This document shows, piece by piece, positions 6,969 to 34,172 of a stretch of DNA of 51,294 bases. The stretch spans positions 183,920 to 235,213 of the forward strand of contig JAGUYM010000014.1 of the NCBI GenBank assembly GCA_020061305.1, read 5' to 3'. The DNA comes from Candidatus Woesebacteria bacterium. GTDB lineage: Bacteria > Patescibacteriota > Microgenomatia > UBA8517. The notes under the pieces are model-generated. The model searched no databases. It saw only the letters and a list, made by a program, of their open reading frames with translations, and was not told the DNA's origin. The position numbers and the translations under genes are program-made. Each line of letters starts with the position of its first letter. Position 1 is the stretch's first letter.

Positions 6969-7016
6969 TTAGTTAAAGAGATTAATAATTGTCTTGACTG
7001 CATTTAATATTTTCAT
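6969..7016 (-). CDS. Putative leader peptide MKILNAVKTIINLFN
   Basis: ATG 7016 to TAA 6969; the stop codon overlaps antiterminator segment 2. Confidence 0.6.
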   Translation of the reverse strand: MKILNAVKTIINLFN

Positions 7017-7028
7017 AAAGCGACTTTT

Positions 7029-7080
7029 AGTTTATAAAACCCAGTTCATAGTTGTCAAGACACAAATTTAAATCTAAAAT
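7029..7080. promoter_or_regulatory. Back-to-back sigma70 promoters sharing the TTGTCAA/TTGACAA -35 core
   Basis: Plus TTGTCA(7052)-17-TAAAAT(7075), ATG 6 nt later; minus TTGACA(7058)-18-TAAACT(7034). Confidence 0.65.
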
Positions 7081-7086
7081 ACCTAT

Positions 7087-8421
7087 ATGAAACGAACCTT
7101 GGTCAAAGAAACTGTCTCTAAAATTGATGAGAAGGTATTAATTAAAGGCTGGATAAATACAGTTCGTGATCATGGGAAGATTACTTTTATTGACTTAAGA
7201 GACAGAACGGGTGTTATTCAGTGTGTTGGTGCAAATTTGGAAAAAGTTACCCCAGAATCTGCAATTGAAATTATTGGAAAGGTTGTCAAAAGACCTGAAA
7301 AATTAATTAATAAAGATATTGAAACAGGTGAAGTTGAGGTTCAAATTGGAGAAGTGAAGATTTTAAATTTGTCTCAAGAATTACCTTTTGATATGGGCAA
7401 AATAGATTTGGATTTGAGTTTACCAACCCTTTTAGACAACAGATCCTTAACACTTAAAAATCAGAAACAAGCCGCAATATTTAAGGTACAAAACGAGGTG
7501 GCAAAAGCTTTCAGAAAAGCGTCAGAGGATATAAGTTGTCAGGAAATTTTTGTTCCAACAATTTCGGCATCATCGACTGAAGGCGGTTCTGAAGTTTTTG
7601 AGATCAAATACTATGATCACAAGGCATTTTTGACACAAAGCCCACAGTTATACAAGCAAATTGCAGTTGGCGCATTTGAAAGAGTTTATTTGTTTTCCCA
7701 TGCCTATAGAGCAGAACCATCGGTAACAACAAGGCATCTATCAGAAGTTGTTCAGATGGATTGTGAAATAGCATTTGTTGAAAATTTTGAAGAGTTGCTT
7801 GATACGGTTGAGTATGTGGGAACGAAGATGATAGTTGATGCATACCAAAATAGTCTTGATCAAATGAAACTGTATCAAGTAAAAAAACCCATTCTCGAAA
7901 ATAAAGTGCCTAGATTAACTCTTCATGAAGCACAAAAAATCATTGAAGAAAGAACCGATCGAAAGGTTGTTGGAGAAAAGGATTTATCACCTGAAGATGA
8001 AACGGAGATATGCAGATGGGCGCTTGAGGAAAAAAGGAGCGATTTTGTAACAGTTACCCATTTCCCAACAAAGAAAAGAGCGTTTTATACAATGCCTGAT
8101 CCAAATAATCCAGAATTTAGTTTGTCATATGATTTGCTTTTTAGGGGTGTTGAAATATGTTCAGGAAGTCAAAGAATAAATGATTACCAAATACTTGTGG
8201 ATGCAATCAAAAGCAGAGGAATGAATCCAAAAGATTTTGAAATGTATTTACAAACTTTTAAATTTGGTATGCCACCCGAAGGGGGGTTTTCATTTGGATT
8301 AGAGAGAATAACAATGAAGCTTTTAGAACTTAAAAATGTGCGTGAGGCTTCACTATTCCCAAGAGATATGGAAAGGGTTGATGTGAGATTTTCACAAGTT
8401 GAGGAAGCTTCAAAAAAATAA
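7087..8421 (+). CDS. aspS: Aspartyl-tRNA synthetase, short archaeal/non-discriminating type
   Basis: OB-fold VRDHGKITFIDLRD, LTQSPQLYKQ, YRAEPS.T.RHL, GMPPEGGFSFGLER. Confidence 0.85.
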   Translation: MKRTLVKETVSKIDEKVLIKGWINTVRDHGKITFIDLRDRTGVIQCVGANLEKVTPESAIEIIGKVVKRPEKLINKDIETGEVEVQIGEVKILNLSQELPFDMGKIDLDLSLPTLLDNRSLTLKNQKQAAIFKVQNEVAKAFRKASEDISCQEIFVPTISASSTEGGSEVFEIKYYDHKAFLTQSPQLYKQIAVGAFERVYLFSHAYRAEPSVTTRHLSEVVQMDCEIAFVENFEELLDTVEYVGTKMIVDAYQNSLDQMKLYQVKKPILENKVPRLTLHEAQKIIEERTDRKVVGEKDLSPEDETEICRWALEEKRSDFVTVTHFPTKKRAFYTMPDPNNPEFSLSYDLLFRGVEICSGSQRINDYQILVDAIKSRGMNPKDFEMYLQTFKFGMPPEGGFSFGLERITMKLLELKNVREASLFPRDMERVDVRFSQVEEASKK

Positions 8422-8424
8422 ATC

Positions 8425-9363
8425 ATGGAAAAAAGTAATCTTTTGTATTTATCATTACTTTCTTTTGTTTTAATTTCAACTTCTGCTATTTCAATTTCAT
8501 CACAGACCGATTATTTTAAAATTGATACGCAAAAAGTTTTAAAAGAAGTCAATGCGAAGTTTTTAGGTAAAAAGTACTCGGACTTGCCCGTCTTAAAAGA
8601 TGGGGCGACTTTTCCTATAATTTCGGCCCAATCTGCAGTTGCAATAGACCTAGTATCAGGTGTTTCATTATATGAAAAAGACCCAAACAAAAAACTACTT
8701 CCTGCTTCAACTACAAAAATAATGACTGCCTTAGTTGCTCTTGATACATATGATTTGGATCAAATATTAAAAGTTGGAAAAATTAATGTAGTAGGGCAAA
8801 AAATGGGTTTAGTTTGGGGAGAGGAGATAAAATTTATTGACTTATTAAAGGGCTTGTTAATTTTTTCGGCAAACGATGCGGCTGAAGTTTTGGCTTTAAA
8901 TCATCCAGCAGGGAGAGATGTGTTCATAGGTTTAATGAATAAAAAAGCACAGGACTTGGGTTTAAAAGATACCCATTTTGAAAATCCTACGGGGCTGGAT
9001 GGAAACGGTGGTCAGTATTCAACAACTAGAGATTTGGTAATTCTTTCCAAACAGGCAATAAAAAATCCCTTTTTTAAAGAAATTGTTGCAATTAAAAATG
9101 AAACAGTTAAGAGCGTTGATGGAAAATATATTCATAGGCTTATAAACATAAACAAACTATTGGGAGAAGTGGACGGGGTTTATGGAGTAAAAACAGGTTG
9201 GACAGAAAATGCAAGAGAAAATTTAGTTTCATATTTAGAAAGAGATAATAGAAAAATAATGATAGCAGTACTAGGAAGCAGTGACAGATTTGGAGAAACT
9301 AAAGAACTAATCAAATGGATATTTGATAATTACTCTTGGGAAGAAGTAAAAATTCCTAACTAG
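8425..9363 (+). CDS. D-alanyl-D-alanine carboxypeptidase (peptidase S11)
   Basis: PASTTKIMT (SxxK), SAN (SxN), KTG. Confidence 0.9.
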   Translation: MEKSNLLYLSLLSFVLISTSAISISSQTDYFKIDTQKVLKEVNAKFLGKKYSDLPVLKDGATFPIISAQSAVAIDLVSGVSLYEKDPNKKLLPASTTKIMTALVALDTYDLDQILKVGKINVVGQKMGLVWGEEIKFIDLLKGLLIFSANDAAEVLALNHPAGRDVFIGLMNKKAQDLGLKDTHFENPTGLDGNGGQYSTTRDLVILSKQAIKNPFFKEIVAIKNETVKSVDGKYIHRLININKLLGEVDGVYGVKTGWTENARENLVSYLERDNRKIMIAVLGSSDRFGETKELIKWIFDNYSWEEVKIPN

Positions 9364-9365
9364 GG

Positions 9366-10412
9366 TTATTCACCATAATAATCATTTGTTACTGCGGGGA
9401 TGTAAGCTACAAAGTCTTTGTCTCCTTCAATTACAAATATTGGCTGGAAGAATTCAACATAAACTCCTGGATCAAAATAGGCAAGATAAATTTTCCTTAT
9501 TTTTATATTTTCCCCATCTTGAACTGAACCCTGATTTGTTAGGAAATAATTTCCATGAGTGAGCTCCTGCCAAACCACCTCACTTGATTTAATGGGGTAT
9601 GTTGCAAATTGTTCTTCATCAACTGGAAAATAGTGATATTCTCCTGCAATTACATCTCTTCCCTTTTCTCTTAATCCCGAAAGCATAAACCAAATATTGG
9701 CTTGAATTGGGTTTTTGGTTATTGAAGGCATTTCATCAAACGATTTTCTGAAAAAATCTAGTCTTACCAAACTTGAGTCAGAAAGCGATAATGCCTCAAT
9801 AAAACCACCACCCTGAGTTTTTAAAAAGCTATTCTTAATAGGCCCGGTTAAATCTGTAGGCATTAGGTTTGCACCACTTAACATTTGCTTAACAGTTCCT
9901 GCACCAACTTCAGGTAGTGGGGGTTTGACAAGAAGTGGACTAGGATCGGCTGCTAAATCATAGCTAATTGAAAAACTGCCTGTAACAATATTCATTTCCA
10001 AACTTGCATTTGATGTCCTGTGGGAAAATCTAAAGATAGAGTCTGATATTTGAACCGCATCAGGAGTAAATCCAAGCCTTTGTGCCTTTTCTTTGGCAAA
10101 GTCCAAAGATAAAAGGTTTGCTGATATTTTTGGCATGAAATAAACTCTTGCCTGATCTTTAAAAGTGGGCAGGCTTCCATCAACTGTTTCCAAGGTAAAT
10201 GTTAGCTGTGGTTTCTGTTTATCCAAAAATGGAAGTTTGGGAAGTTTTCCAAAGGCAACAGTAGGAGGTGTTGGAGCAGGAGGAAAGACCTTTTTGTAAA
10301 CTGCAATCAAAACATTTAATGAAAATCTAGTGATAATTATAAAAATGACAAAATAAATAAAATATCTCAAAGATCTTCTTGCATAAATTGAACTTTCAGT
10401 GAGTGTGGCCAT
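9366..10412 (-). CDS. Membrane-anchored hypothetical protein (start re-called to 10412, MATLT)
   Basis: Long ORF, one N-terminal TM helix, PPAPTPP linker. Confidence 0.8.
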   Translation of the reverse strand: MATLTESSIYARRSLRYFIYFVIFIIITRFSLNVLIAVYKKVFPPAPTPPTVAFGKLPKLPFLDKQKPQLTFTLETVDGSLPTFKDQARVYFMPKISANLLSLDFAKEKAQRLGFTPDAVQISDSIFRFSHRTSNASLEMNIVTGSFSISYDLAADPSPLLVKPPLPEVGAGTVKQMLSGANLMPTDLTGPIKNSFLKTQGGGFIEALSLSDSSLVRLDFFRKSFDEMPSITKNPIQANIWFMLSGLREKGRDVIAGEYHYFPVDEEQFATYPIKSSEVVWQELTHGNYFLTNQGSVQDGENIKIRKIYLAYFDPGVYVEFFQPIFVIEGDKDFVAYIPAVTNDYYGE

Positions 10413-10418
10413 TTTATT

Positions 10419-10437
10419 TGCTATAATCATTTTAGCA
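10419..10437. promoter_or_regulatory. Overlapping divergent extended -10 promoters
   Basis: Plus TGCTATAAT 10419-10427, 9 nt before gltX ATG; minus TGCTAAAAT 10437-10429. Confidence 0.65.
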
Positions 10438-11753
10438 TGAATCAAAATAAAGTTAGAACTAGATTTGCACCCAGCCCAACAGGTTTTTTACATATTGGTG
10501 GTTTAAGAACTGCACTTTACGCATATCTCTTGGCAAAACATGAAGGGGGAGATTTTATACTTCGGATCGAAGACACTGATCAAAAAAGAGAAGTTGAAGG
10601 TGCAACTGAAGCGCTCCAAGAAACTTTAAAAAAATTTGGTTTAATTTGGGACGAATTTTACAAGCAATCAGAAAGACTTGAAAAATATAAAAGTGCCGCA
10701 GAAAAATTAGTTAGGGAAAGTTATGCTTTTTATTGCAATTGCAAACCTAAAAATGCAAAAGTAGAAGGGTTTTCTAAGGAATTGCGCGACCCATGTAGAG
10801 ATAAAAAGTTGACCAGTGGAGCAATAAAATTGAGGGTTCCAGATGGGCAGATTGTTAGATATCATGATTTTGTTCACAAGAAAGAAATATCTTGGAAAAC
10901 TGATGAAGTTTATGACGCCACACTTTTAAAATCAGATGGATTCCCAACTTACCATTTAGCTGTAGTAGTTGATGATACTGACATGAAGATAAGTCATATT
11001 ATAAGAGGACATGATTGGCTTCCCTCAACCCCAATACATCTTTTAGTTTTTGATTATTTGGTTAGTAAAAGGCCCGAGATTGGGCATTTAACAGATATTT
11101 TGTCAACTGAAACTGGCAAAAAACTTTCAAAAAGACGAGATTCTGTTTTTGTAGAACAATTCTTAGAAGAAGGTTATCTTTCAGAGGCACTTCTCAATTT
11201 TGTATTACTTTTAGGTTGGGCTCCCAAAAATAATAAAGAAATGTTTACTCTCACTGAGATGGTTAAAAGTTTTGACATAAACGGATTTCAGGACGCTAAT
11301 CCTAAGTTTTTTAGAGATAAACTTGATTGGTTTAATGGACAGTATATTCGTCAACTGAAAGTTGGCGACTTAAATTCTAAATTCCAAACTCTAAATTCTA
11401 AATTTAAAGCATTAAAGACAGAAACACAAATAGAAATTACAAAACTGGTTAAAGATAGAATTAGTAAGTTAACTGATATAAATACACTGGCCAAGTTTTT
11501 TTGGGAGACACCTGAAGTTGACAAGAGTCTTTTGGGCAATAATTATAAACTTCATCTTGCGAAAGCTATCGAGGCAATTGAAAACGATAAAGATTTGATG
11601 GAAGTTGTAAAGGAAAACAATTTTAAAACTGGAGACTTTTTTATGGATTTGAGAATTGCCATAACAGGCTCAAAGTTTACCCCTCCAATAAATGAATCAA
11701 TTGAAATTTTAGGAAAAGATGAAACATTAAAAAGACTTAAAAAAGTTATATGA
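10437..11753 (+). CDS. gltX: Glutamyl-tRNA synthetase
   Basis: RFAPSPTGFLHIGG, LRIEDTD, DGFPTYH, KLSKR. Confidence 0.95.
   Translation: MNQNKVRTRFAPSPTGFLHIGGLRTALYAYLLAKHEGGDFILRIEDTDQKREVEGATEALQETLKKFGLIWDEFYKQSERLEKYKSAAEKLVRESYAFYCNCKPKNAKVEGFSKELRDPCRDKKLTSGAIKLRVPDGQIVRYHDFVHKKEISWKTDEVYDATLLKSDGFPTYHLAVVVDDTDMKISHIIRGHDWLPSTPIHLLVFDYLVSKRPEIGHLTDILSTETGKKLSKRRDSVFVEQFLEEGYLSEALLNFVLLLGWAPKNNKEMFTLTEMVKSFDINGFQDANPKFFRDKLDWFNGQYIRQLKVGDLNSKFQTLNSKFKALKTETQIEITKLVKDRISKLTDINTLAKFFWETPEVDKSLLGNNYKLHLAKAIEAIENDKDLMEVVKENNFKTGDFFMDLRIAITGSKFTPPINESIEILGKDETLKRLKKVI
11370..11404 (+). repeat. 7-mer array inside gltX
   Basis: TTAAATT CTAAATT CCAAACT CTAAATT CTAAATT. Confidence 0.85.
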
Positions 11754-12682
11754 AACAAAATTCTGCCCAAAGCCTTGACCTTTTTAGGCAAAAACTTAAA
11801 TTAAAAAGCCTTGAGGCGGGAGAAAATTTCAAAAAAAATTTTCCTGAAGCCCATCAGTTTTTACTTGATAAAGGTTTAGAATTAAAAAAGATTAGAGAGC
11901 ATTCTGCAAAATTAATTTCTGCGGGGGCAATTACAGGAACACTTCTTTTGGCTCCACCCACAGGAGTTGGTGAATTGCCAAAGCCTACAGAAGTCATAAA
12001 AAGTCTGGATGAACCTGATTCAAATAGAAACAGACTTCCACAAAAAGAACTCCTTGAAGCACTTTCCAAAATGCTTCCGCAAGAAGTAAGGCCACTTCTT
12101 AGAGATGAAGAAAAGAGGTTGGAACAGGTAATAAAAGATATAACTGGAATACCTGCAAAAGCAACACTTGAAGAAGAGCACTTAAATACAATTTATGGTT
12201 ACATAGGTGCCGAACAGCACTTAAAAAGATTCCCTGGAGATACTTTGGAAAACCATGGACCTTATTATAAAGAGGGTATTGCTCCTGGCCTTGGTGCATG
12301 GGGTTATTTTGCTAAATCAAAAGATCAGTTGACGCCAGATTTAATTGAAACTGAAAAATGGTATTCTGTTGTTCAGACATTATATCTTCCCGGTTGGAAC
12401 TCAAGACAGCCATATCTTCGGGATTGGTACAAATACAGAAAACTTATGATATTAAACACTAAAAATGGAAATGCTGTTGTTACCGCAATTGCAGACTCAG
12501 GCCCTGCAGCTTGGACAGGTAAACATTTTGGAGGAAGCCCAGAAGTTATGGAATATCTGGGTGGAAGTAGATATAAAAAGGGTGCGGTTTTAGTCTTTTT
12601 TGTTGATGATCCTGAAAATAAAATAAAATTGGGCCCAGTCGATTATAATAAAATAAATAAAGAAAACTTAATACAAATATGA
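11750..12682 (+). CDS. Hypothetical protein with possible RlpA-like double-psi beta-barrel C-terminus
   Basis: NGNAVVTAIADSGP....KHFGGSPEVMEYLG resembles RlpA NGKSVVVRINDRGP...IIDLS. Confidence 0.5.
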   Translation: MKQNSAQSLDLFRQKLKLKSLEAGENFKKNFPEAHQFLLDKGLELKKIREHSAKLISAGAITGTLLLAPPTGVGELPKPTEVIKSLDEPDSNRNRLPQKELLEALSKMLPQEVRPLLRDEEKRLEQVIKDITGIPAKATLEEEHLNTIYGYIGAEQHLKRFPGDTLENHGPYYKEGIAPGLGAWGYFAKSKDQLTPDLIETEKWYSVVQTLYLPGWNSRQPYLRDWYKYRKLMILNTKNGNAVVTAIADSGPAAWTGKHFGGSPEVMEYLGGSRYKKGAVLVFFVDDPENKIKLGPVDYNKINKENLIQI

Positions 12683-12993
12683 GTCAATTATTTTTTGATA
12701 AAATCCTGGATTTGAGTAAATTAGAAAATGTCTTAAATAAGCTAACTCGTTCGACAGAAGAGCGGACGGAGTTGTGGTTACATGTTGATGAGATTATTCA
12801 TAACAGAATTATTTCTTGTTGTTTATTACATTTACATAAGGACCATCATCAAGAATTTTTGGAGATTTTTATTAGAAGCCCTTACGATAAAGGAATAATT
12901 AAGTATTTAGATGATAAAACAAAGAAAGATATGAAAAAAGTTTTACAAGATGAAATAAAACTTCTAGAAAAAGAAATTAGAGAGCTCAGATAA
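12679..12993 (+). CDS. Hypothetical protein
   Basis: ORF coupled to both neighbours. Confidence 0.7.
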   Translation: MSQLFFDKILDLSKLENVLNKLTRSTEERTELWLHVDEIIHNRIISCCLLHLHKDHHQEFLEIFIRSPYDKGIIKYLDDKTKKDMKKVLQDEIKLLEKEIRELR

Positions 12994-13335
12994 ATGGATA
13001 CTCATTACAAAGGTTTAATTTGGACCAATCATGCAATCCATAGAATGCGAGAAAGAGGAATATCACAGGGTGATGCGTGGGCTACATGGAACAGACCGGA
13101 GCAAAGTAGATACGCTGCTTCAAAAGGTGCGTGGGTGTATTATAGAACTTGGCCCGCTTCGACTGGCAAGCCGGGTGAATATATCAAGATCGAAGTTGTT
13201 GCAAAACGAAACGAGAAGAAACAATGGGTAATTATATCCGTTTGGAGCAATGAAGTAAAAAATACCAACAATCAGAGTCCTCAAAAATCACTTTTTCTTA
13301 CCCTTTTTAGAAATATTTTCTCGATTAAGAACTAA
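12994..13335 (+). CDS. DUF4258-family protein
   Basis: WTNHAIHRMRERGIS motif. Confidence 0.7.
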   Translation: MDTHYKGLIWTNHAIHRMRERGISQGDAWATWNRPEQSRYAASKGAWVYYRTWPASTGKPGEYIKIEVVAKRNEKKQWVIISVWSNEVKNTNNQSPQKSLFLTLFRNIFSIKN

Positions 13336-13530
13336 ATATATCAGAGGAAGGATGCCTAAAGAATTGACTACCAAGAGTGCGATGAACCATACATTTTGAT
13401 TCTTTTTTGCCGATTTCCAAAGGGCAAATCCTCGAAGTATTAAATCAATTAATGAAAACAAGGTCAACCCTCCAAAAAACCATCTCTTATCATAATCATA
13501 TCCCCAGTATCCCCATTTTCCGTACATCAT
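13288..13530 (-). CDS. DUF5652-family small membrane protein
   Basis: LRGFALWKSAKKNQNVWFIALLVVNSLGILPLIY. Confidence 0.8.
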   Translation of the reverse strand: MMYGKWGYWGYDYDKRWFFGGLTLFSLIDLILRGFALWKSAKKNQNVWFIALLVVNSLGILPLIYLVLNRENISKKGKKK

Positions 13531-13536
13531 TAGTTC

Positions 13537-13579
13537 ATCATATTAGATAGTTGACAAGATTTCAATAGATAACTAGAAT
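13537..13579. promoter_or_regulatory. Overlapping divergent sigma70 promoters, both apparently leaderless
   Basis: Plus TTGACA(13551)-17-TAGAAT(13574), ATG 8 nt later; minus TTGAAA-17-TATGAT(13542-13537), ATG 6 nt later. Confidence 0.75.
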
Positions 13580-13587
13580 GGATTTAG

Positions 13588-14274
13588 ATGACTGCCAAAA
13601 GTAAGACTTTTAAATATCTTCCGATCCTTGCAATTACTGCGTTTGTTTTGAGTTTTGCTGTTGTCAATTATAACAATTCTCAAGTTTTGAATACTTCGGA
13701 GGGGATGGTTTTAAGTGATAGGGACGAGAATTCTGAGGAGATTGAAAAGAGGAACGAAGAAAGAGTTGAAGCAACAAAAAGAGAAAATGAACAAAAGTCA
13801 GAAGAAGCTAAAAAAAGAAATGAAGTTAGGAAAGAGGTAAGAAATAGATCGGAGATTAGAGTTAGAGAGGTAGAAAGTGAAAGCGAGGATTCAGATCAAG
13901 ACGAGTTTGAATTAGAATCTGAAGGAGTAAAAGCAAGAACAGGTTTTCCGTTGAAATTGGATACCAAAACAAATGAGTTAATGGTGGCTGGCCCCAGTGG
14001 TGAGACCAAGGATGTTGCAGTTTTACCTGACAAAGCTGTTGAAAATCTCTTGGAAAATAAAAGGATAGAGTTAATAGATGAACCTTTAGATTTAGTTGAA
14101 AATAAAGATAAAAGTGAACTTGAATACAGAGCAGAGGCAGTTGAAGAGAAAAGATTTTTAGGATTGTTTAAAATTAGGCTTCAAAAAGAATTTAGAATTT
14201 CGTCAGAAACGGGTGAAGTAGATGAAATTCCTACAACGGGATTAAGAAGACTTCTTGATCTTCTCTCTTTCTAA
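13588..14274 (+). CDS. Exported hypothetical protein
   Basis: N-terminal hydrophobic helix, charged coiled region, strong promoter. Confidence 0.75.
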   Translation: MTAKSKTFKYLPILAITAFVLSFAVVNYNNSQVLNTSEGMVLSDRDENSEEIEKRNEERVEATKRENEQKSEEAKKRNEVRKEVRNRSEIRVREVESESEDSDQDEFELESEGVKARTGFPLKLDTKTNELMVAGPSGETKDVAVLPDKAVENLLENKRIELIDEPLDLVENKDKSELEYRAEAVEEKRFLGLFKIRLQKEFRISSETGEVDEIPTTGLRRLLDLLSF

Positions 14275-15213
14275 TATCCGAACAACTTCAGTAATATGCT
14301 CTGTATCCATAAGTTCAGCTCTTAAGGTTGTTGCTCCATCAAAACCTTTTATATACATTTTAAAAAACCTTTTAAGTGTGGCAAAATGCTTGCTATCACC
14401 ATATATGTGATGATGTAAGTTGGTGTGTTTGAGGGCAAGGTCAAGGAAATCATTAACTTTATGATCTATGTTATTATTTCCAAATATCCATGGGTTTTTG
14501 AGTATCCCTCTTGCAATCATTACTCCATCAACTCCATATTGTTTATGTTTTAAAACAGCTTCTTTTTTTGATAAAACATCCCCATTTCCAATAACCAATG
14601 TATTGGGAGAGATTTTATTTTTAATTTTTGTAATCTCACCAATTGCGTCCCAGTTAGCCTGACCATCTGACATTTGTGAGGGTGTTCTACAATGAACAGT
14701 AAGTGCGTCTATTTTTTGTTCAAGTAAAAATTGTACCCAGTCCTGATACGAGATAATTTTATTACCCAATCTTGTCTTAATGCTTAATGGAATTTTATTT
14801 TTGAGCCCTTCTTTTGTTGCATTAATTATTTCTTTAACTAGATCAAAATTACCAATGCATCCGGCTCCACCGCCAGATTCTACAACACTTCTGTGAGGGC
14901 AACCCATGTTTATATCTACCCCATCAAATCCCAAATTGAGACAGATTTGTGCTGATCTGAAGAAATTTTGGGGATTAGACCCCCAAATTTGGGCGACTAT
15001 TGGTCTTTGGCTCTTACTAAATTGAAGTCTTTTTATGGTTTCTGGATAACCTTTTTCAGATGTGAGCCCGTCAGTATTCGTAAATTCTGTAAAAAACACA
15101 TCAGGACGAGGTAAATATCTCGAAACTATTTCTCTAAACACATAATCGGTTACATTTTCCATTGGTGCCAAAACAATAAATGGTCTGGTAAGCTTGGTCC
15201 AGAAATTAATCAT
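14242..15213 (-). CDS. dus: tRNA-dihydrouridine synthase
   Basis: LAPMENVTD, DINMGCP, SIKTRLG, TVHCRT, GNGD, GVMIARG. Confidence 0.92.
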   Translation of the reverse strand: MINFWTKLTRPFIVLAPMENVTDYVFREIVSRYLPRPDVFFTEFTNTDGLTSEKGYPETIKRLQFSKSQRPIVAQIWGSNPQNFFRSAQICLNLGFDGVDINMGCPHRSVVESGGGAGCIGNFDLVKEIINATKEGLKNKIPLSIKTRLGNKIISYQDWVQFLLEQKIDALTVHCRTPSQMSDGQANWDAIGEITKIKNKISPNTLVIGNGDVLSKKEAVLKHKQYGVDGVMIARGILKNPWIFGNNNIDHKVNDFLDLALKHTNLHHHIYGDSKHFATLKRFFKMYIKGFDGATTLRAELMDTEHITEVVRILEREKIKKSS

Positions 15214-15279
15214 GATGTTTGTATTATAGCCGACTTTTGGCTATATATTTAAATCAAATACCTGATATAATGATGATAG

Positions 15280-26360: not shown

Positions 26361-26370
26361 TGCAAAAATT

Positions 26371-26390
26371 TATTGACCGTTCGGTCAGTA
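26371..26390. promoter_or_regulatory. Putative TetR operator
   Basis: TAtTGACCG-TT-CGGTCAgTA palindrome between promoter and ATG. Confidence 0.75.
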
Positions 26391-26397
26391 TTTAGTT

Positions 26398-26425
26398 ATT
26401 GTATCAAAATTATGATTGAAGTCAA
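26398..26425 (-). promoter_or_regulatory. Promoter of tetR-ABC operon
   Basis: TTGACT-16-TACAAT with extended TG. Confidence 0.6.
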
Positions 26426-26435
26426 TTTTCTAAAA

Positions 26436-27044: not shown

Positions 27045-27069
27045 ATATTGTATAATATAAGACATATTA

Positions 27070-27083
27070 TACTTTGTAAAGTA
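27070..27083. promoter_or_regulatory. Putative HxlR-family operator
   Basis: TACTTT-GT-AAAGTA perfect inverted repeat between divergent genes. Confidence 0.55.
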
Positions 27084-27100
27084 GTTACAAAAAGTAAAGT

Positions 27101-27403
27101 ATGAATAACGAGTCTTGCGGGGTAGAAAATACCGTTAAAATTATCGGCAAAAAATGGACGATACTTATTATCAGGGATCTTTGTGAGGGTAAAAAAAGAT
27201 TTGGCGAGCTCTTGCGCTCACTTGAGGGTATAAGTCCTCGGACACTTTCTTTTCGGCTCACCCAGCTGGAGAGGGAAGGTATCATTAGGCGCAAAGTGTT
27301 TAAAGAAATTCCCCTTCACACCGAATACTCACTTACACCAAAAGGTGAGTCCCTGCGGGATATTATTATAAAAATGCAACGGTGGGGAGAAACTAAAAAA
27401 TAA
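27101..27403 (+). CDS. HxlR-family winged-helix regulator
   Basis: IGKKWTILII, RFGEL, GISPRTLS.RL, HTEYSLT.KG. Confidence 0.92.
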   Translation: MNNESCGVENTVKIIGKKWTILIIRDLCEGKKRFGELLRSLEGISPRTLSFRLTQLEREGIIRRKVFKEIPLHTEYSLTPKGESLRDIIIKMQRWGETKK

Positions 27404-27530
27404 GCTATCAAACCACCGAAATTAACCAAAAATCAGTCAGAGTAAATAAACAGAGTAAATAAGGCCAAGCCTATTTTTGAAATCTCAAAGATTAAAAAGT
27501 TTTTTAAGCGACAAACAAAAACACTAAATT

Positions 27531-27642
27531 ATGGAAGCCAAGATAAATATATTCCAAGAGTCGCAATATTGGACCTGCTGAAATTGCGAGAAGAAAACAC
27601 TCGGGTTGGATTGGATTTATTGCAACGGTTGTAATCAAGTGA
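27531..27642 (+). pseudogene. Frameshifted 5' fragment of a small membrane-protein gene
   Basis: Two frameshifts join M..KYIP.V(C)NIGPAEIARRKHSGWIGFIATVV, then TGA. Confidence 0.45.
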
Positions 27643-27720
27643 CCGTTTATGAACGGTATCTGGCTGAGCATACGAGTCTAGTATCTACTAGTCCCATATG
27701 CTAATACTCCAAGTGTATCG

Positions 27721-27775
27721 CTTTTGAGGCCAAATGAGACATTTGAGACAGTATAAAAAGGAAATGTCTCAAAAG
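27721..27775. repeat. TGAGACA direct and inverted repeat cluster
   Basis: TGAGACATTT 27735, TGAGACA 27744, AAATGTCTCA 27762. Confidence 0.6.
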
Positions 27776-27825
27776 TCGTTGATGTATTTTGATATAGTCC
27801 AACTTGTTTGTTATATAATCGGGTT

Positions 27826-28323
27826 ATGCTAACTAAAGATGAGCTGGATTATTTATCGAAAATTCCAAGAAACAAAAAAGTTTCAGTTAAGCCTTTTGAC
27901 CCACAAGCCAGAAGGGTAGGAGATTTGATTGTCTCCAAAATCAAAAAAGCTTTATCCGACCTCGAAGTTTTGTTTATGGGAGCAACTGCACTTGAGATTG
28001 CAGGACAAAATGATATTGATATTTATATGTTATCAGAACCTAGTAAATTTGGTGAACACTTACCAACTTTAGAAAAACTTTTTGGCAAACCTAAAAGTAC
28101 CTACGATACTTTTATTGAATGGTCGTTTACTGAGAACGGATATCCAATAGAACTCTATTTAACCGAACCACCCGAAAGACAAATTAGGGTCTATGAAATA
28201 CTCAAATCAAACAAAGAATTATTAAAAGAGTATGAGGATCTAAAACTTAAATTTAGTGACAAGAGTTTTAGAGATTATCAAAGAGCAAAATATGAATTTT
28301 ACAGTAAAATACTGAACCTTTGA
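27826..28323 (+). CDS. GrpB/UPF0157-like nucleotidyltransferase-fold protein (start re-called to 27826)
   Basis: GATALEIAGQNDIDI, YEDLKL...YQRAKYEF; TATAAT 6 nt before ATG. Confidence 0.7.
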   Translation: MLTKDELDYLSKIPRNKKVSVKPFDPQARRVGDLIVSKIKKALSDLEVLFMGATALEIAGQNDIDIYMLSEPSKFGEHLPTLEKLFGKPKSTYDTFIEWSFTENGYPIELYLTEPPERQIRVYEILKSNKELLKEYEDLKLKFSDKSFRDYQRAKYEFYSKILNL

Positions 28324-28329
28324 AGGATT

Positions 28330-28881
28330 CTAGATTTCTATCTCCTTCATTTCAAGGTTTGCCCAATCAATATATCTCCCAAGATCAAGAAATATTAACT
28401 GGTCATATTTTTCTCTTGCTGCAATAACGTCTAGCAAGTGCCTAAAAAATATTGCATGCCCTACAACTGCAATGCTGTCGTATTTGTCCTTTTGTTTTTT
28501 TAGAAATTTCAGGAATTTCTCTGCTCTTGCTTTAATCTCGTTGAAGCTCTCACTACCATCGTATTTCCAGTCTGGGTTTTTGCGATATTCCAAAAGCCCC
28601 CAATCCCAAAACTTTCTACTCTCTTCTCTACTTTTGCCATCTAAAGATTTGGGTCTGACATACTCATAGATATAATCAATAGTCTCATAGTTGCCTTCAC
28701 CAAAAACCAGATCTGCTGTTGCCGTAGCTCTTATTAATGGGGAGGAATAGACCTTATCTACTTTTAGATCTGAATAAAGTCCTTCTTCAATTGTAGATGC
28801 ATCTATTTTTGCATCAGGGTTTTGAGATTTTCCTTCTCCCGATTCAAGAGTTTTGGCATGGCGAATTAAATATAATTTCAT
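28330..28881 (-). CDS. Histidine phosphatase superfamily protein
   Basis: LYLIRHA.T, SSPLIRA.AT, ESFNEIKARA, VVGH. Confidence 0.88.
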   Translation of the reverse strand: MKLYLIRHAKTLESGEGKSQNPDAKIDASTIEEGLYSDLKVDKVYSSPLIRATATADLVFGEGNYETIDYIYEYVRPKSLDGKSREESRKFWDWGLLEYRKNPDWKYDGSESFNEIKARAEKFLKFLKKQKDKYDSIAVVGHAIFFRHLLDVIAAREKYDQLIFLDLGRYIDWANLEMKEIEI

Positions 28882-28952
28882 ATTGATAAAAGCTATTTTA
28901 TATCAAGCCTTAATCATTTTGAAGTGGATGTAGTAAAATTGAGGTTTGAATT

Positions 28953-29762
28953 ATGAAAAATAATAAATATGCATATGGAATAGACTTTGGAACCACAAAT
29001 TCCACCATAACGGCCATTACTAGGTCGGGTGAACCAATACGATTGGAGATTGATAACGAGGCCGAAAATAAGGCTGTTATGTGATCAGTCATTTGTATCA
29101 ATAACAATCATGAGTTTATATACGGTCAAAAAGCTGTTGCCACTTATGTAAAAGATATTGCTGAAGGTAGAGTCGCTAAAAGAAAGAGTATATTTACTGG
29201 AAAATATATAAAGATCTCTTCTCCAGCTGACGCAGGAGGTTTTAAGTAAGATCAGATAGTACCAGAAATTATTGAGATTGAAGAAGGTGAAGGAGGAAGA
29301 TTATTGCAGGCACTTAAAAGTATTTTAAGTAGCAAGTTCATATCAAATCTTAAAATTTTTGAAAAAGAATATTCAATAGAGGAACTTGTATCTTCATTCC
29401 TCAAGGAGATGGTTAGGTTCATCGCAAGAGTTCACAAATTAAAACCAAATAGAATTAGAGAGAAATTTTTACCCGCAAATTTTGCTTGCTTTAGCATCGA
29501 TGACTATCTAAAAAAATATTTTCAACAGTGTTACCTTAATTATATTGCAGCGGGTGAAGAATACAAAAAAAGATTAGAGTTAGTCAAAAAAATCATTGAC
29601 ATAGAATGGCTAGCAATCTATTTGTATTCGATGACTCCAGAAAAAATAAAGATTAGGAAATTTTCCGACAAGAACTTCGATGAGAGTGCCTACCTCAAAA
29701 CCCAATATCTCAAATTTCACAACAGGCTGAAAATCATAGAAAATGGCTTGCTGGCTGATTAG
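28953..29762 (+). pseudogene. Hsp70 (YegD-like) pseudogene with two in-frame stops and an apparently unrelated tail
   Basis: YGIDFGTTNS; TGA 29082 and TAA 29247 in the same frame; GRLLQALKSIL; Hsp70 similarity ends near 29410. Confidence 0.8.
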
Positions 29763-29764
29763 TT

Positions 29765-30350
29765 TCAGCTGATTAACCTCAACAAAAACGGTACAATTCT
29801 GATTGTGGGGAGTTTGTATCTGTAGACAACTTTGTAGTAAGTGGTTCTGAATATTTTGGTTTTTTCTTCAAGTCTTTGATTAAATTTCTGGTCATTTTTG
29901 ATATCTGTCAGGAAATTGCCTGCAGCACGTTCTATGGACGGGAAAAGAAGCTGGTTTTGATAGTCTTCCCTGGCAGTTGAGTATTCATCTTGTTTTTCTT
30001 CAATTAGCTTTAGAAGTTTTTTTCAACCTCCAAGTAGATTTTAATTTGGCAGGTATTCTTTGGTATGGAGATTTTGGTCTTTGACCGAGGATTATAAACT
30101 CCTCAAGGCATTTGTTTTGAAAATCCATTATCTGGGAGAGCCTTTTAATGATACTCACCAATTTTCTTTTCTTATATTTTTCTTTGAGAAAAGAAGCTAT
30201 TGTTTCTCCAGAGTAGGAATGGCAAAAAAGAAACTCTTAACTCTTCATAATCATCCTTGATCATTTTTTTGTCGACAACGATAAGCTTATTTGGTACGAA
30301 TCTCTGTTCTGTCCCAAAAATATCCTTATAACTCAGCCCCGAAAAGGTTT
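29765..30350 (-). pseudogene. Decayed hypothetical gene (bounds approximate)
   Basis: Protein-like frame SYKDIFGTEQRFVPNK... broken by several stops and one frameshift; open C-terminal piece ending YKLPTIRIVPFLLRLIS*. Confidence 0.45.
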
Positions 30351-30513
30351 AATCTAACTAGTATAAACTGGTCGTTATCAGTACACGAAACAGGGATTCG
30401 AACGGAGGCTAATTGAAGCTAAATTTTGGTTATAATCCTCGCCTTTGAAAACAGCACTTTTGGAGGAAAACACGGGTTTTTCGAGAGAGTATGGTCACTA
30501 GAGGTGCATATAC

Positions 30514-30587
30514 TGGCTGCGGAGCTTGGGGTTGAACCAAGATACCATCCTCCAGAGGGATGAGTCCTGCCATTAGACGACTCCGCA
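30514..30587 (-). tRNA. tRNA-Gln(CUG), CCA encoded
   Basis: Cloverleaf TGCGGAG/CTCCGCA, anticodon arm CATCC-CTCTGGA-GGATG, T arm CTTGG-TTCAACC-CCAAG; TGATATAAT upstream. Confidence 0.95.
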
Positions 30588-30697
30588 TTGATCTTAACTA
30601 GATTATTATATCAGTCAAATGCTTTTTTGGTATTATTTGGTAATATTAGGCAATATTTGACACTTATGAATATACTATCAAAATAATTTTCACTTTA

Positions 30698-31036
30698 TTA
30701 TATTATTTTTGGTATAAACAAAAGACCTGCAATAATTATGGAAGTTATCGAAGCGAATAATACAACTGCTGCAGAAATATCTTTAATTTGTCTTGCCAAC
30801 TCTGTTTTTTCTAAAGAGTGAAGGTCAACAAGTTTTTCAATTGCTGTATTTATCATTTCAAAAGTTATCACAAAAAATATAGTTAGAATCAAGATTGCAA
30901 CTTCTTGCTTTGAAAATTCAAAAAAATATGCAAAAATTAAAACAAGCAAGGCAAAAAGAAAATGAACGCTCAAATTGGGTTCAGATTTCAACGCATCAAT
31001 AATTCCTTGGAGAGCATATTTAAAACTTTTTGTCAT
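30698..31036 (-). CDS. dgkA: DgkA-family diacylglycerol/undecaprenol kinase
   Basis: SFKYALQGI, EMINTAIEKLVD, KDISAAVV. Confidence 0.85.
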   Translation of the reverse strand: MTKSFKYALQGIIDALKSEPNLSVHFLFALLVLIFAYFFEFSKQEVAILILTIFFVITFEMINTAIEKLVDLHSLEKTELARQIKDISAAVVLFASITSIIIAGLLFIPKII

Positions 31037-31037
31037 A

Positions 31038-31063
31038 GTTTAAGTATATCGTTTAAGTATATC
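31038..31063. repeat. Exact 13-bp tandem duplication in a 32-bp divergent gap
   Basis: GTTTAAGTATATC x2. Confidence 0.9.
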
Positions 31064-31068
31064 AAAAT

Positions 31069-31527
31069 ATGATAACTTTTTTTGCAAGTGTTTTAATTTG
31101 GTTAATGTTTTTCGGGCTTGTGGTTTTGTGGATTATTGACGGCAAACACAAAAAAGAAATTGTAATACATGCCTTGTTTGCTTGTTTTTTTGCCTGGGTG
31201 ATTTCTGAAAGTATTAAACATTTTTTCCCAACCTTAAGACCTTATGCGGTTAACGGACTTGACCCTTTAACATTGACTATTCCCATTGATGGGGCTTTCC
31301 CTTCAAGCCATACTGCGGTTAGTGTTGCTTTGGCAGTTTCAATTTTTAAGCACAACAGAAAAATAGGGATGTTATATATAGTAATGGCAGGTTTTGTCGG
31401 AATTGCAAGAATAATGGCGTATGTTCATTATCCATTAGATATAATTGGTGGAGCAGTTATTGGAGTGATAATCGCACCCTTGACATCTAGCAGACACTTT
31501 GCTAGACTGCTAAGTAATAATGATTAG
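31069..31527 (+). CDS. PAP2-family phosphatase (BcrC-like)
   Basis: IKHFFPTLRP, FPSSH, ARIMAYVHYPLD. Confidence 0.88.
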   Translation: MITFFASVLIWLMFFGLVVLWIIDGKHKKEIVIHALFACFFAWVISESIKHFFPTLRPYAVNGLDPLTLTIPIDGAFPSSHTAVSVALAVSIFKHNRKIGMLYIVMAGFVGIARIMAYVHYPLDIIGGAVIGVIIAPLTSSRHFARLLSNND

Positions 31528-33883
31528 AAGTATTCCAATTGTTCCAATTAGAGGGTCGGTAGTTTTTCCCCACACAGATGTTTTGCTATCATTTATCAGA
31601 CCAAATGCGGTAGCTGCTGCCGACGATGCTTTCAAAAAAGACAGGGTGGTTGCTATTTTTGCCCAGAAAGACTCAAGGATAAATGATCCTACAAGAAACG
31701 ATTTGTATGAAATAGGAACATTGGTAACGATAACACAACTTATGCCCTCAGAGGACGGTGTTCATGCTTTGGTTCATGGTCATTCCAGGATAAGGCTTAA
31801 GGAAATTGTTTCCAATATTCCATTTGCTGTTGGGGTAGTTGAGGAAGTAGACGAGAATATTGAACCATCTCCCGAGATTTCGGCACTTTCAAGAACACTT
31901 TCCGATCAATTTAAAGTCCTTTTGTCGATGGGTAAAAATGTTGAGGTTATGTCAATTGTAAAACTAATTGGTGAGAATACTAACCCCTCAGAATTAACGG
32001 ACCAAATAGCTGGGGTTTTGGATTTAAAGCTTAATGAAAAACAAATTCTTCTTGAAACAACACCCATTCTTGAGAGGATGAAGAAAACCAACGACTTTTT
32101 AGCCAGGGAAATAAATATACTTCGGATTGAAAAGGAAATATTAACTAAGACTGAAATGCAATTTAATGAAAACATGAAGAGAAATATCCTAAGGGAAAGA
32201 AAAAGGGCAATAGACAAGGAATTGGGTCAGATGGGAGATGAAGAAAAAGTTGGGGATATCCCTTCGGAAGAAGTTAAGGAATATAAAAAGAAAATAATGG
32301 AGGCTAAAATGCCAAAAGAAGTTGAAGAAAAAGCCTTGAAAGAACTTGAAAAGTTTTCCAAAATGAGTTCATACAATCCAGAGTCGGGTTTTTTGAGAAA
32401 TTATTTGGATTGGTTATGTGATATGCCTTGGGATAAGTTAAGCCCAAATAATGTGGTTATTGCAAAGGCGGCGAAAATAATGGAAGAAAAGCACTACGGA
32501 CTCCCCAAAACTAAAGAAAGAATTTTGGAATATCTGGCAGTAATGAAACTTCTTGAAAAGAGGAGGAAGTCAAATACAAAAGATAGGTATCAACCAACAA
32601 TTTTATGTTTCATTGGTCCTCCAGGTGTTGGAAAAACCTCAATAGGTAGAGCAATCGCAGAAGCTATGGGAAGAAAATTCGTAAGAGTATCTTTAGGTGG
32701 GATTCGTGATGAGGCAGAAATTCGAGGCCATAGAAGAACGTATGTGGGGGCACTTCCAGGACGAATTGTCCAAGGAATAAAACAGGCTGGAACCAGAAAT
32801 CCCGTATTTATGTTAGATGAGATTGATAAAGTTGGATATGATTTTAGGGGAGACCCAAGTTCGGCTCTTCTTGAGGCACTTGACCCAGAACAAAATAGGG
32901 AATTTTCAGACCACTATTTAGAAGTTCCATTTGATTTGTCTGAAGTCTTTTTTATTGCAACTGGAAATGTTCTAGATACCATCCCTCAAGCCTTAAGGGA
33001 CAGGATGGAAATTATACAATTCTCAGGTTACACTGAGGATGAAAAATTTGAAATTGCGAAAAAGTTTATAATTCCAAAACAAATTAAAAATCATGGATTG
33101 GATGACATAAAGTTTTCGATTTCAGATTCCAGTATTAAGACCATGATATCAAGATATACAAGAGAAGCAGGAGTTAGAAATTTGGAAAGACAGATATCAA
33201 CAGTTGCTAGAAAAATAGCCAAACTTGTGGCTCAGAAAAAAACATATCCGAAAGTTATCACTAATGCACATTTATTAAAATATCTAGGTCCGTATAGATA
33301 CACTGCATTGGCCGCAGAAAAAAAAGATGAAATAGGAATGTCAACAGGACTTGCAGTTACAAACTCAGGTGGAGAAATATTGTTTATTGAGGTTTCAATA
33401 ATGCCGGGAAGGGGAAGACTTACGCTAACGGGCCAGCTTGGGGATGTGATGAAGGAGTCAGCACAAGCGGCATTTACATGGACAAGGGCAAATTATAAGT
33501 TACTAGGACTTTCGGCTAATTTTTCTCAAAAAATTGATGTTCATATCCATGTTCCAGAGGGGGCAGTACCAAAAGATGGTCCTTCGGCAGGAACTGCAAT
33601 CACAACCGCTCTTGTTTCAGCATTAACCAAAACTGCGTCAAAAAGAGACACGGGGATGACAGGAGAAATAACCCTAAGGGGAAAAGTTACTGAAATTGGT
33701 GGGGTAAAAGAAAAAACAATTGCAGGCCATAGAGCGGGATTAAAAACAATAATTCTCCCAAAGGATAATAAAAAAGATATGGTTGATGTACCAAAAAGTG
33801 TTAAAGAAGACATTAAGTTTGTTTATGCGACACAGATTGAAGATGTTCTCTCCCACACACTCACTAAATGGCCCATAAAATAA
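31520..33883 (+). CDS. lon: Lon protease
   Basis: GPPGVGKTS, HRRTYVGALPG, PKDGPSAG, IGGVKEK. Confidence 0.97.
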   Translation: MIRSIPIVPIRGSVVFPHTDVLLSFIRPNAVAAADDAFKKDRVVAIFAQKDSRINDPTRNDLYEIGTLVTITQLMPSEDGVHALVHGHSRIRLKEIVSNIPFAVGVVEEVDENIEPSPEISALSRTLSDQFKVLLSMGKNVEVMSIVKLIGENTNPSELTDQIAGVLDLKLNEKQILLETTPILERMKKTNDFLAREINILRIEKEILTKTEMQFNENMKRNILRERKRAIDKELGQMGDEEKVGDIPSEEVKEYKKKIMEAKMPKEVEEKALKELEKFSKMSSYNPESGFLRNYLDWLCDMPWDKLSPNNVVIAKAAKIMEEKHYGLPKTKERILEYLAVMKLLEKRRKSNTKDRYQPTILCFIGPPGVGKTSIGRAIAEAMGRKFVRVSLGGIRDEAEIRGHRRTYVGALPGRIVQGIKQAGTRNPVFMLDEIDKVGYDFRGDPSSALLEALDPEQNREFSDHYLEVPFDLSEVFFIATGNVLDTIPQALRDRMEIIQFSGYTEDEKFEIAKKFIIPKQIKNHGLDDIKFSISDSSIKTMISRYTREAGVRNLERQISTVARKIAKLVAQKKTYPKVITNAHLLKYLGPYRYTALAAEKKDEIGMSTGLAVTNSGGEILFIEVSIMPGRGRLTLTGQLGDVMKESAQAAFTWTRANYKLLGLSANFSQKIDVHIHVPEGAVPKDGPSAGTAITTALVSALTKTASKRDTGMTGEITLRGKVTEIGGVKEKTIAGHRAGLKTIILPKDNKKDMVDVPKSVKEDIKFVYATQIEDVLSHTLTKWPIK

Positions 33884-33916
33884 TTTATTTGATATAATAC
33901 TCCTATTGTTAAAAAA

Positions 33917-33990
33917 GGCCCCGTCGTCTAGTGATCTAGGACACTTGGTTCTCATCCAAGAGATCATGAGTTTGAATCTCATCGGGGTCA
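33917..33990 (+). tRNA. tRNA-Glu(CUC), CCA not encoded, A19/U56 variant
   Basis: GGCCCCG/CGGGGTC acceptor, CTTGG-TTCTCAT-CCAAG anticodon arm, ATGAG-TTTGAAT-CTCAT T arm; TGATATAAT at 33890. Confidence 0.9.
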
Positions 33991-34062
33991 CACAAAGTGA
34001 TACTGTTCAGTTGATGTTGAGGATATTAAAAACATTAATGAAATTATTATAAGTATTTTTGC

Positions 34063-34091
34063 TTGACAACATGGTGTTCTGGAGGTACACT
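34063..34091 (+). promoter_or_regulatory. greA promoter
   Basis: TTGACA-17-TACACT. Confidence 0.8.
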
Positions 34092-34118
34092 TTAAACCTA
34101 ATTATATAAAATTAGTAT

Positions 34119-34172
34119 ATGACAAATCTTTCCAACATGTTTACTGTAATTAGCCTCATTAAGGCTAGGTAA
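34119..34172 (+). CDS. Putative greA leader peptide MTNLSNMFTVISLIKAR
   Basis: 17-codon uORF between promoter and terminator. Confidence 0.6.
   Translation: MTNLSNMFTVISLIKAR

Follow-up and report, generated by a model that had tools for sequence, protein, structure and literature searches.

Putative leader-peptide attenuators upstream of greA and an orphan acidic protein gene in a Woesebacteria-like bacterium

Background

How bacteria of the candidate phyla radiation (CPR, Patescibacteria) regulate their genes is, to our knowledge, almost unknown, and in a full-text literature search no top-ranked paper paired "leader peptide" or "attenuator" with "Patescibacteria". The question is raised in concrete form by a 51,294-nucleotide (nt) stretch of a Candidatus Woesebacteria genome (contig JAGUYM010000014.1; the whole stretch is referred to as the window). 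By its GreA, LysRS, Lon and AspRS proteins, the window belongs to the Microgenomates among the Patescibacteria, near Woesebacteria. Two leaders in this window, each combining a promoter, a short upstream open reading frame (uORF) and an intrinsic terminator, precede an open reading frame (ORF) for an acidic protein of 72 amino acids (aa) (leader 1) and greA (leader 2). What do these leaders sense, and by what means? A first-pass annotation had described them as parallel attenuators with similar peptides, together forming a regulon that reports translation stress.

The analysis presented here established their anatomy, conservation, geometry and the selection on their reading frames. With moderate confidence, both elements are interpreted as ribosome-mediated (trp-type) attenuators, part of a group of leader-peptide switches that Woesebacteria-like CPR bacteria build to a common design. 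They are probably tuned to the decoding of isoleucine together with lysine or asparagine, a stall site and a signal that we infer.

Architecture of the two leaders

Leader 1, a minus-strand element, is flanked by the divergent aspS gene (7087-8421) and by the 72-aa ORF, which converges on recJ. Its features are as follows.

7058-7029, minus strand: promoter, with -35 element TTGACA (7058-7053), 18-nt spacer and -10 element TAAACT (7034-7029)
7016-6969, minus strand: uORF 1, 15 codons plus TAA, peptide MKILNAVKTIINLFN
6984-6989, minus strand: tandem Ile codons ATT ATT (codons 10-11 of uORF 1), the proposed stall site
6956-6996, minus strand: P1 domain (anti-antiterminator), in which CAAGACAA (6996-6989) pairs with TTGTCTTG (6963-6956)
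6970-6933, minus strand: antiterminator (helix 2:3), a perfect 12-bp pairing of AAGAGGTTTGTC (6970-6959) with GACAAACCTCTT (6944-6933)
6941-6909, minus strand: intrinsic terminator, AAACCTCTTT-TACA-AAAGAGGTTT, with a 10-bp stem (6941-6918) followed by the T tract TTTATTATT
6889-6671, minus strand: ORF of the 72-aa acidic protein, with the Shine-Dalgarno (SD) sequence GGAGG at 6903-6899

The ATG of uORF 1 lies 12 nt past the -10 box and is not preceded by an SD sequence. The 1:2 stem encloses an inner hairpin formed by ATCTCTT (6982-6976) and AAGAGGT (6970-6964), and the stop codon of uORF 1 sits at the junction of the loop and the 3' arm of this hairpin, its last two bases opening the 3' arm. 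The antiterminator begins within the stop codon (free energy, dG, -16.7 kcal/mol; z-score -7.6), and the Ile-Ile codons lie in an unpaired bulge 16 nt 5' of the antiterminator arm. The fold z-score of the whole leader was -3.2.

Two further observations were made at this site. The -35 element of leader 1 overlaps back to back (7052-7058) with the plus-strand -35 element of aspS, TTGTCA (7052-7057); the aspS promoter is TTGTCA-17-TAAAAT, with the ATG 6 nt past the -10 box, and competition between the two promoters for RNA polymerase is possible. A run of eight T residues (6945-6952, minus strand), not conserved in relatives, directly follows the P1 hairpin in the window. Hairpin and run could act as a hairpin-dependent pause synchronising polymerase and ribosome.

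Leader 2 is located on the plus strand, 3' of a tRNA-Glu gene and 5' of greA, the identity of its regulated gene being confirmed by both GreA domains in Pfam.

34063-34091, plus strand: promoter TTGACA-17-TACACT
34119-34172, plus strand: uORF 2, 17 codons plus TAA, peptide MTNLSNMFTVISLIKAR
34158-34163, plus strand: Ile14-Lys15 codons ATT AAG of uORF 2, the proposed stall site
34127-34185, plus strand: P1 domain with an 11-bp 1:2 stem, TCTTTCCAACA (34127-34137) with TGTTGGGGAGA (34175-34185)
34179-34204, plus strand: antiterminator (7-bp helix 2:3), GGGGAGA (34179-34185) with TCTCTCC (34198-34204), dG -8.4
34197-34229, plus strand: intrinsic terminator, ATCTCTCC-loop-GGGGAGAT, with an 8-bp stem (34197-34220) followed by the T tract TATTTTTTG
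34248-34700, plus strand: greA, 150 aa, with Pfam domains GreA_GreB_N and GreA_GreB

Here the 1:2 stem encloses the hairpin TAGCCT (34151-34156)/AGGCTA (34162-34167), the antiterminator arm starts 9 nt after the start of the uORF 2 stop codon, and the Ile14 and Lys15 codons lie 21 and 18 nt upstream of that arm. The terminator ends 27 nt upstream of the greA ATG (34248), and the fold z-score of the leader was -3.6.

In both leaders, helices 1:2, 2:3 and 3:4 are mutually exclusive, and helix 3:4 is a terminator directly before the regulated gene. All the parts reported by the first-pass annotation (TTGACA promoter, uORF, stems, segment 2 and terminator) were found by coordinates, and both leaders are real; the annotation had left unsaid that leader 1 is on the minus strand. 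No other intergenic site in the window has a convincing hairpin followed by a T tract.

A three-codon mini-ORF, ATG AAA ACA TGA (34240-34251), whose stop overlaps the greA ATG, was also noticed; it was not seen in the relatives inspected.

Conservation of the leaders in related genomes

Conservation of the greA leader was surveyed in 79 Microgenomates greA loci from GTDB genomes (numbered L...). The full leader was found in 26 of them, the window counted. Each has an equivalent, near-consensus promoter (26 of 26), an ATG 7-30 nt past the -10 box and a uORF of 17-21 codons whose stop lies 0-3 nt before the start of segment 2, with the G-rich core of segment 2 following 6-9 nt past the stop; in most of them the terminator lies 12-30 nt before greA. 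In one further locus (L040) the uORF ATG is replaced by ATA, and a side group (L023, L027 and L034) has a longer frame containing S-I-I-N/K. The sub-groups are connected by nhmmer, and more distant Microgenomates carry greA without any leader.

RNAalifold analysis of the greA leaders recovered the 1:2 stem and the terminator. In the model-fitted alignment, both sides change in 18 of 24 pairs, values matched by none of 500 shuffles, and 88% of cells are paired compared with 50-63% in slid controls; this covariation is supportive rather than independent evidence, because the alignment leans towards the model. For the antiterminator, 84.5% of cells were paired in group A, compared with 49-75% for slid controls.

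Leader 1 is present in eight distinct relatives, always between aspS and recJ and with the uORF kept; the order aspS, leader, small ORF(s), recJ was seen in every locus recovered with enough flank. The TTGACA promoter is found in six of the eight homologs, and all eight fold as P1, inner hairpin and terminator; their antiterminators begin at the stop codon and have free energies between -10.7 and -18.6 kcal/mol. Compensatory changes were seen in three helices: AAGACAA/TTGTCTT to AAAACAA/TTGTTTT (L086), CCTCTT/AAGAGG to CTTCTT/AAGAAG (L082), and TTTGTC/GACAAA to TTAAGTTT/AAACTTAA. Both elements are thus conserved, with open frames in the 26 greA loci and the eight leader 1 relatives, and the earlier description of them as leader-peptide-type switches was borne out.

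Upstream of the greA promoters of many relatives (L004-L015, L020, L030, L036), a TTGATATAnTCTGATTT motif is conserved 5-25 nt 5' of the -35 element, abutting TTGACA; it may represent an operator or an UP element. The window greA promoter does not have it, and one weak window copy was found at 27789-27802. The conserved stretch before the relatives' promoters also yielded the 14-letter pattern TTGATAYNNTCTNA, in which N or Y stands at four positions. No exact copy of this pattern occurs in the window, nor is the pattern present at the window greA promoter; with one mismatch it has nine matches compared with 3.9 expected, a number reached in 2 of 100 shuffles.

Selection on the uORF reading frames

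Several features indicate that the uORFs are under selection as reading frames and behave like translated frames, from which translation itself may be deduced. The ATG is invariant across the 26 greA uORFs. There were no in-frame stops in 495 uORF codons, whereas the two remaining frames had 20 and 47, and the frame ends at a fixed place with any of the three stop codons (TAA in 14, TGA in 7 and TAG in 5). A comparable ORF arose from a shuffled 75-nt leader in about 1% of trials (P about 0.01).

SD-like motifs were detected before only 4 of the 54 window genes. TATAAT- or TAGAAT-like boxes lie 6-12 nt before many window ATGs (for example 3711-5072, 10437, 13588 and 14242-15213; further gene starts with such boxes near the ATG are 15280, 15719, 34743 and 46425). 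Because SD sequences are few and -10 boxes stand so close to start codons, leaderless or short-leader initiation is taken to be the norm here, and the lack of an SD sequence at the uORFs is therefore no argument against their translation in a nearly SD-free genome. CTAATT, considered as an initiation motif, showed no enrichment in the window.

Candidate control codons

The two window peptides share T-[IV]-I-[NS]-L-[FI], a likeness that the first-pass annotation had pointed out while allowing that it might be due to chance. Its BLOSUM62 score of 17 was reached by 8% of random pairs drawn from the pooled uORF composition and by 13% of shuffled peptides, and the likeness is not significant (P about 0.1).

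What the families have in common is an in-frame Ile-(Ile)-Lys/Asn motif, positioned so that a ribosome stalled on it would release the antiterminator. Ile followed by Lys, Asn or Arg (I[KNR]) occurs in frame within the last nine codons of 19 of the 26 greA leaders, compared with 2 and 0 in the other frames; at least one Ile followed by Asn or Arg occupies the proposed stall site in all eight leader 1 homologs, compared with 0 and 0. For both families pooled, the in-frame motif is found near the stop in 27 of 34 leaders, and in 2 and 0 of 34 in the other frames. The structural setting of the Ile-(Ile)-Lys/Asn/Arg motif differs, being the loop of either of two hairpins or a bulge. All three Ile codons occur (ATT, ATC, ATA), so that the wobble base varies, and Ile makes up 14-18% of uORF codons, compared with 5-8% in other frames and 8.4% of the proteome.

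Another possibility considered was an arrest peptide or antibiotic sensor, in which the peptide sequence would stall the ribosome, either unaided or together with a ligand or drug. Some residues near the C-terminus are conserved; in the greA leader these are L-I-(I)-K-A, and in leader 1 they are T-I-I-N-L-F. These conserved residues are, however, encoded by stem nucleotides that covary as RNA. In the greA peptide F-S-N corresponds to TTTTCCAACA in segment 1 and S-L-I-K-A to AGCCTTATTAAGGCT in the small hairpin, and in leader 1 K-T corresponds to AAGACA and N-L-F to AACCTCTTT, both of them stem nucleotides. The remainder of each peptide is unconserved, greA residues 7-11 varying freely among relatives. 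Since most of the conserved residues are RNA-stem codons and the middle residues are free, and with the likeness of the window peptides at chance level, the arrest-peptide option raised earlier is regarded as highly improbable.

Lysine-codon leaders in relatives

Two covariance models were built, R1 from the greA leaders and R2 from leader 1. R2 also matched elements located just 3' of greA in relatives, with scores of 24-38 bits, and these proved to be a third family of leaders of the same design, at the following positions.

L017, 2023-2114: Lys-codon leader
L068, 2978-3070: Lys-codon leader
L025, 2996-3079: Lys-codon leader
L028, 2979-3067: Lys-codon leader
L026, 2989-3082: Lys-codon leader
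L030, 2967-3046: Lys-codon leader
L038, 439-531: Lys-codon leader
L019, 2949-3041: Lys-codon leader

Their uORFs have 12-16 codons, with tandem Lys codons (SKK or KKK) in the place of the Ile-Ile of leader 1; the peptides include MRNLLNIISKKTAAS, MKIILVIMKKKTTSF, MQLHTNLKKAAKKQNS, MNILTNNKKHTTS, MQKIVIIVSKKTVSS, MSILDSKKKIAS and MRNLVCFDSKKKTAS. They follow the design of leader 1: the uORF stops within the inner hairpin's loop, the antiterminator arm reads G(G)AGGTT(T)GTC, and the terminator is AACCTC/GAGGTT. No Lys-codon leader was found in the window.

The genes behind these leaders are lysS, M20 peptidases (read as LysK-like), a LysX ATP-grasp protein with a semialdehyde dehydrogenase (read as LysY-like), and an aminotransferase with a class II synthetase. 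The codons at the control position thus match the regulated pathway, and on sequence grounds the relatives seem to control a lysine pathway of the LysW type by classical attenuation. The first-pass annotation had supposed that CPR bacteria generally lack the classic targets of attenuators; that premise does not hold for these relatives, where LysX, LysY-like and LysK-like genes and lysS are preceded by tandem Lys codons. The same leaders show that more switches of this design exist in the lineage. As far as we have checked, Lys-codon leaders have not been described in the literature.

Because the Lys leaders pair tandem Lys codons with lysine genes and lysS, they suggest by analogy that the codons 5-7 positions before the stop are the control codons in this lineage. 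Ile10-Ile11 of the 15 codons of leader 1 occupy this position. In the greA leader the uORF stop lies past the small hairpin, and the Ile and Lys codons at positions -4 and -3 are therefore equally 18-21 nt from the antiterminator arm. The Lys leaders serve in this way as an internal control for the reading of codons, and suggest that textbook amino-acid attenuation operates in these reduced genomes.

Proposed mechanism and its alternatives

According to the proposed mechanism, RNA polymerase would start at the strong promoter, and a ribosome would load on the short, SD-less 5' end and translate the frame of 15 or 17 codons. On reaching the stop codon, this ribosome would cover segment 2 with its footprint, so that the 3:4 terminator forms and transcription stops; in the case of no ribosome, segments 1 and 2 would pair and the terminator would again form. 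A ribosome lingering on Ile-Ile-Asn (leader 1) or Ile-Lys (leader 2), 16-21 nt before the antiterminator arm, would melt segment 1 and the small hairpin and leave segment 2 free to form the 2:3 helix, and greA or the 72-aa gene would be transcribed. Such a switch would turn on when decoding slows, and would be most sensitive to a shortage of charged Ile-tRNA (with Lys or Asn) but responsive also to general slowing, in which it would be similar to the whiB7 uORF described below. With the established size of the ribosome footprint, the geometry read from the coordinates agrees with the trp-type rule, in that a stop-bound ribosome masks segment 2 and a ribosome on the control codons leaves it free.

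Classical attenuators of this type are trpL, pheL and leuL of Escherichia coli, and pheST for an aminoacyl-tRNA synthetase. The likeness extends to a promoter-proximal uORF of 14-17 codons, to the three helices 1:2, 2:3 and 3:4 with an intrinsic terminator, to a stop codon placed so that the terminating ribosome masks segment 2, and to control codons approximately 4-6 codons before the stop (Ile10-Ile11 of 15 in leader 1; trpL has Trp10-Trp11 of 14 codons). In contrast to the classical systems, the window leaders regulate greA and a small orphan protein rather than a biosynthetic operon, have one or two candidate control codons, no SD sequence and a very short 5' untranslated region, and are found in a CPR host.

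A number of points weigh against the interpretation as codon-tuned attenuators. The in-frame Ile/Lys signal is partly forced, because AUUAUUAA and AUUAAG leave just two of their three phases free of stops, and both sequences lie in AU-rich unpaired segments. AAG makes up 58% of uORF Lys codons compared with 20% in genes, a bias that comes in part from pairing. No control codons matching the regulated pathway were found in the window leaders, where the genes are greA and an orphan protein and the Ile codons number one or two; with so few, an amino acid would be sensed weakly, and in the window greA leader Ile-Lys occurs just once at that place. The only RNA runs, which come from the source study, contained nothing from this stretch. 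In five relatives with similar GreA identity (L008, L009, L012, L015 and L020), only the promoter and a CTCTCC/GGAGGG terminator are present, without a uORF; translation is therefore not the sole possible input. Finally, nhmmer detected no similarity between the two leader families, and the cross-family covariance scores (22-46 bits) are barely above those of reverse strands (24-34 bits).

Within these scores, the only other window match of R1 was leader 1 (28.8 bits, E 0.004), and R1 scored leader 1 homologs at up to 46 bits. R2 scored the relatives' greA leaders at 22-38 bits, and the window greA leader was not reported at E<1. Homology of the two window leaders by sequence was rejected on the nhmmer result, the covariance-model matches being largely architectural; their likeness is one of architecture, and common descent is possible. 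Covariance models of Rfam 15 gave no family at or above its gathering threshold in either leader; in the window only two tRNAs reached it. The best cis-regulatory leader families in the leaders were Phe_leader (16-18 bits, threshold 55) and PyrR (21 bits, threshold 54), and the top score of any kind was that of SpF39_sRNA (24 bits, threshold 60).

The five relatives with a bare terminator bear directly on a second explanation, in which greA is controlled independently of translation, terminator efficiency being set by the state of RNA polymerase or the level of GreA, with a secondary or incidental uORF; an action in trans by the short terminated RNA is a further possibility. In these relatives the hairpin and T tract lie approximately 60-90 nt before greA, directly behind the promoter and without an antiterminator, and the CTCTCC/GGAGAG stem that persists there is the most conserved piece of the leader. 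Such leaders are reminiscent of GraL in E. coli, and the uORF appears to be a layer of little evolutionary stability. In E. coli, two thirds of transcripts are terminated in the greA leader, through which GreA autoregulates (PMC2836576, PMC6829880), and greA/rnk ranks with the gene families that most frequently have attenuators in front of them (PMC2965389). Like leader 2, E. coli greA/GraL and the predicted greA leaders of Proteobacteria and Firmicutes (Naville and Gautheret 2010) have a strong promoter, an intrinsic terminator and an antiterminator alternative. No leader peptide is described for E. coli greA/GraL, where GreA autoregulates and GraL acts in cis; in the window greA leader, a conserved uORF is set against the switch. 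This explanation leaves unaccounted for the conserved ATG, open frame, stop placement and 1:2/2:3 helices in 26 loci, as well as leader 1 as a whole, and is considered improbable as the sole control of greA. A GraL-like, GreA-dependent layer may, by analogy, coexist with ribosome control rather than replace it.

In a third explanation the uORF codons are irrelevant, and the leaders are general sensors of coupling. Any slowdown of the lead ribosome relative to RNA polymerase, caused by antibiotics, starvation for any amino acid or a scarcity of ribosomes, would lead to read-through, forming one translation-stress regulon. The free variation of greA peptide residues 7-11, the lack of a run of one single codon in the uORFs and the architecture common to both leaders are in line with it, and the logic fits, as GreA relieves the backtracking of RNA polymerase that follows uncoupling. 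The uORF of mycobacterial whiB7 offers a precedent, as it senses translation stress of many kinds and its composition tunes which starvation is sensed (PMC10274678). In whiB7, as before greA, a uORF and a Rho-independent terminator/antiterminator precede a stress-response gene and the peptide is variable, tuned by its composition to Ala starvation there and enriched in Ile, Lys and Asn in the window leaders. The whiB7 uORF is, however, longer and contains nearly all amino acids, its target is a transcription factor with positive feedback, and it has no sequence relation to the window leaders. General sensing is countered by the retention of in-frame I-(I)-K/N at the critical position across sub-families with different local RNA structure, and by the sister Lys leaders, whose codons match the regulated pathway. 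We therefore judge purely general sensing to be rather unlikely, though less so than the alternatives above.

Attenuation tuned to particular codons is thus preferred, and the first-pass annotation is borne out as to the type of switch; as to the signal, codon-specific sensing (Ile, Lys, Asn) is at least as well indicated as general slowdown. The signal of the window leaders would be the supply of Ile-tRNA or any slowdown, and by analogy with whiB7 both can hold together. Co-regulation of the two window leaders as one regulon is plausible.

Significance

Terminators in greA leaders and leader-peptide attenuators are both known; what is new is a leader peptide that probably works the terminator of greA, and of an orphan protein gene, in a CPR lineage. 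The input signal of the E. coli greA-leader terminators is unclear, and the conserved frame makes testable the hypothesis that the supply of GreA is set by the ability of ribosomes to keep pace with RNA polymerase.

More broadly, and tentatively, one modular attenuator design with exchangeable control codons may be the main means by which Woesebacteria-like CPR bacteria report aminoacyl-tRNA supply, in a starvation regulon linking translation status to transcription rescue; we regard this as possible but doubtful. If it is true, Lys-Lys versions govern lysine synthesis and lysS, and Ile-Ile-Asn and Ile-Lys versions wire greA and the acidic orphan protein to the supply of the amino acids most used by an AT-rich proteome. 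In that case the 72-aa protein, induced along with GreA, would be a stress effector not recognised before.

The 72-aa protein and neighbouring features

The 72-aa protein behind leader 1 becomes a candidate stress factor. Its SD sequence is the strongest in the window. The protein had no Pfam or NCBIfam match, its family is small (28 representatives among 1.8 billion proteins), and its AlphaFold2 model has a predicted local distance difference test score (pLDDT) of 61 and is mostly disordered, with a low-confidence fold. The central motif YTVADQARGFGVPEEQL matches only repeat proteins and LysM- or helix-turn-helix-like turns, among them repeat units of a few very large repeat proteins (P0133, P0136, P0145), one of which is a LysM-repeat protein. 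From these matches, the motif is probably a generic helix-turn feature that is uninformative on function.

The gene following greA is lysS.

34701-36185, plus strand: lysS, with its own promoter-like site TTTAAA-17-TAGAAT at 34701-34729

Because 8 of the 25 uORF-bearing loci have no downstream lysS and the window lysS has its own promoter, lysS probably does not depend on leader 2, and the greA leader as a Lys sensor for lysS was rejected.

Elsewhere in the window (28953-29762), a 43-codon ORF starting with MKNNKYAYGIDFGTTNS is closed by a TGA, beyond which other frames contain open stretches. The pieces tested from this region had no Pfam match. The start resembles an Hsp70/actin-fold N-terminus, and the region may be a decayed gene.

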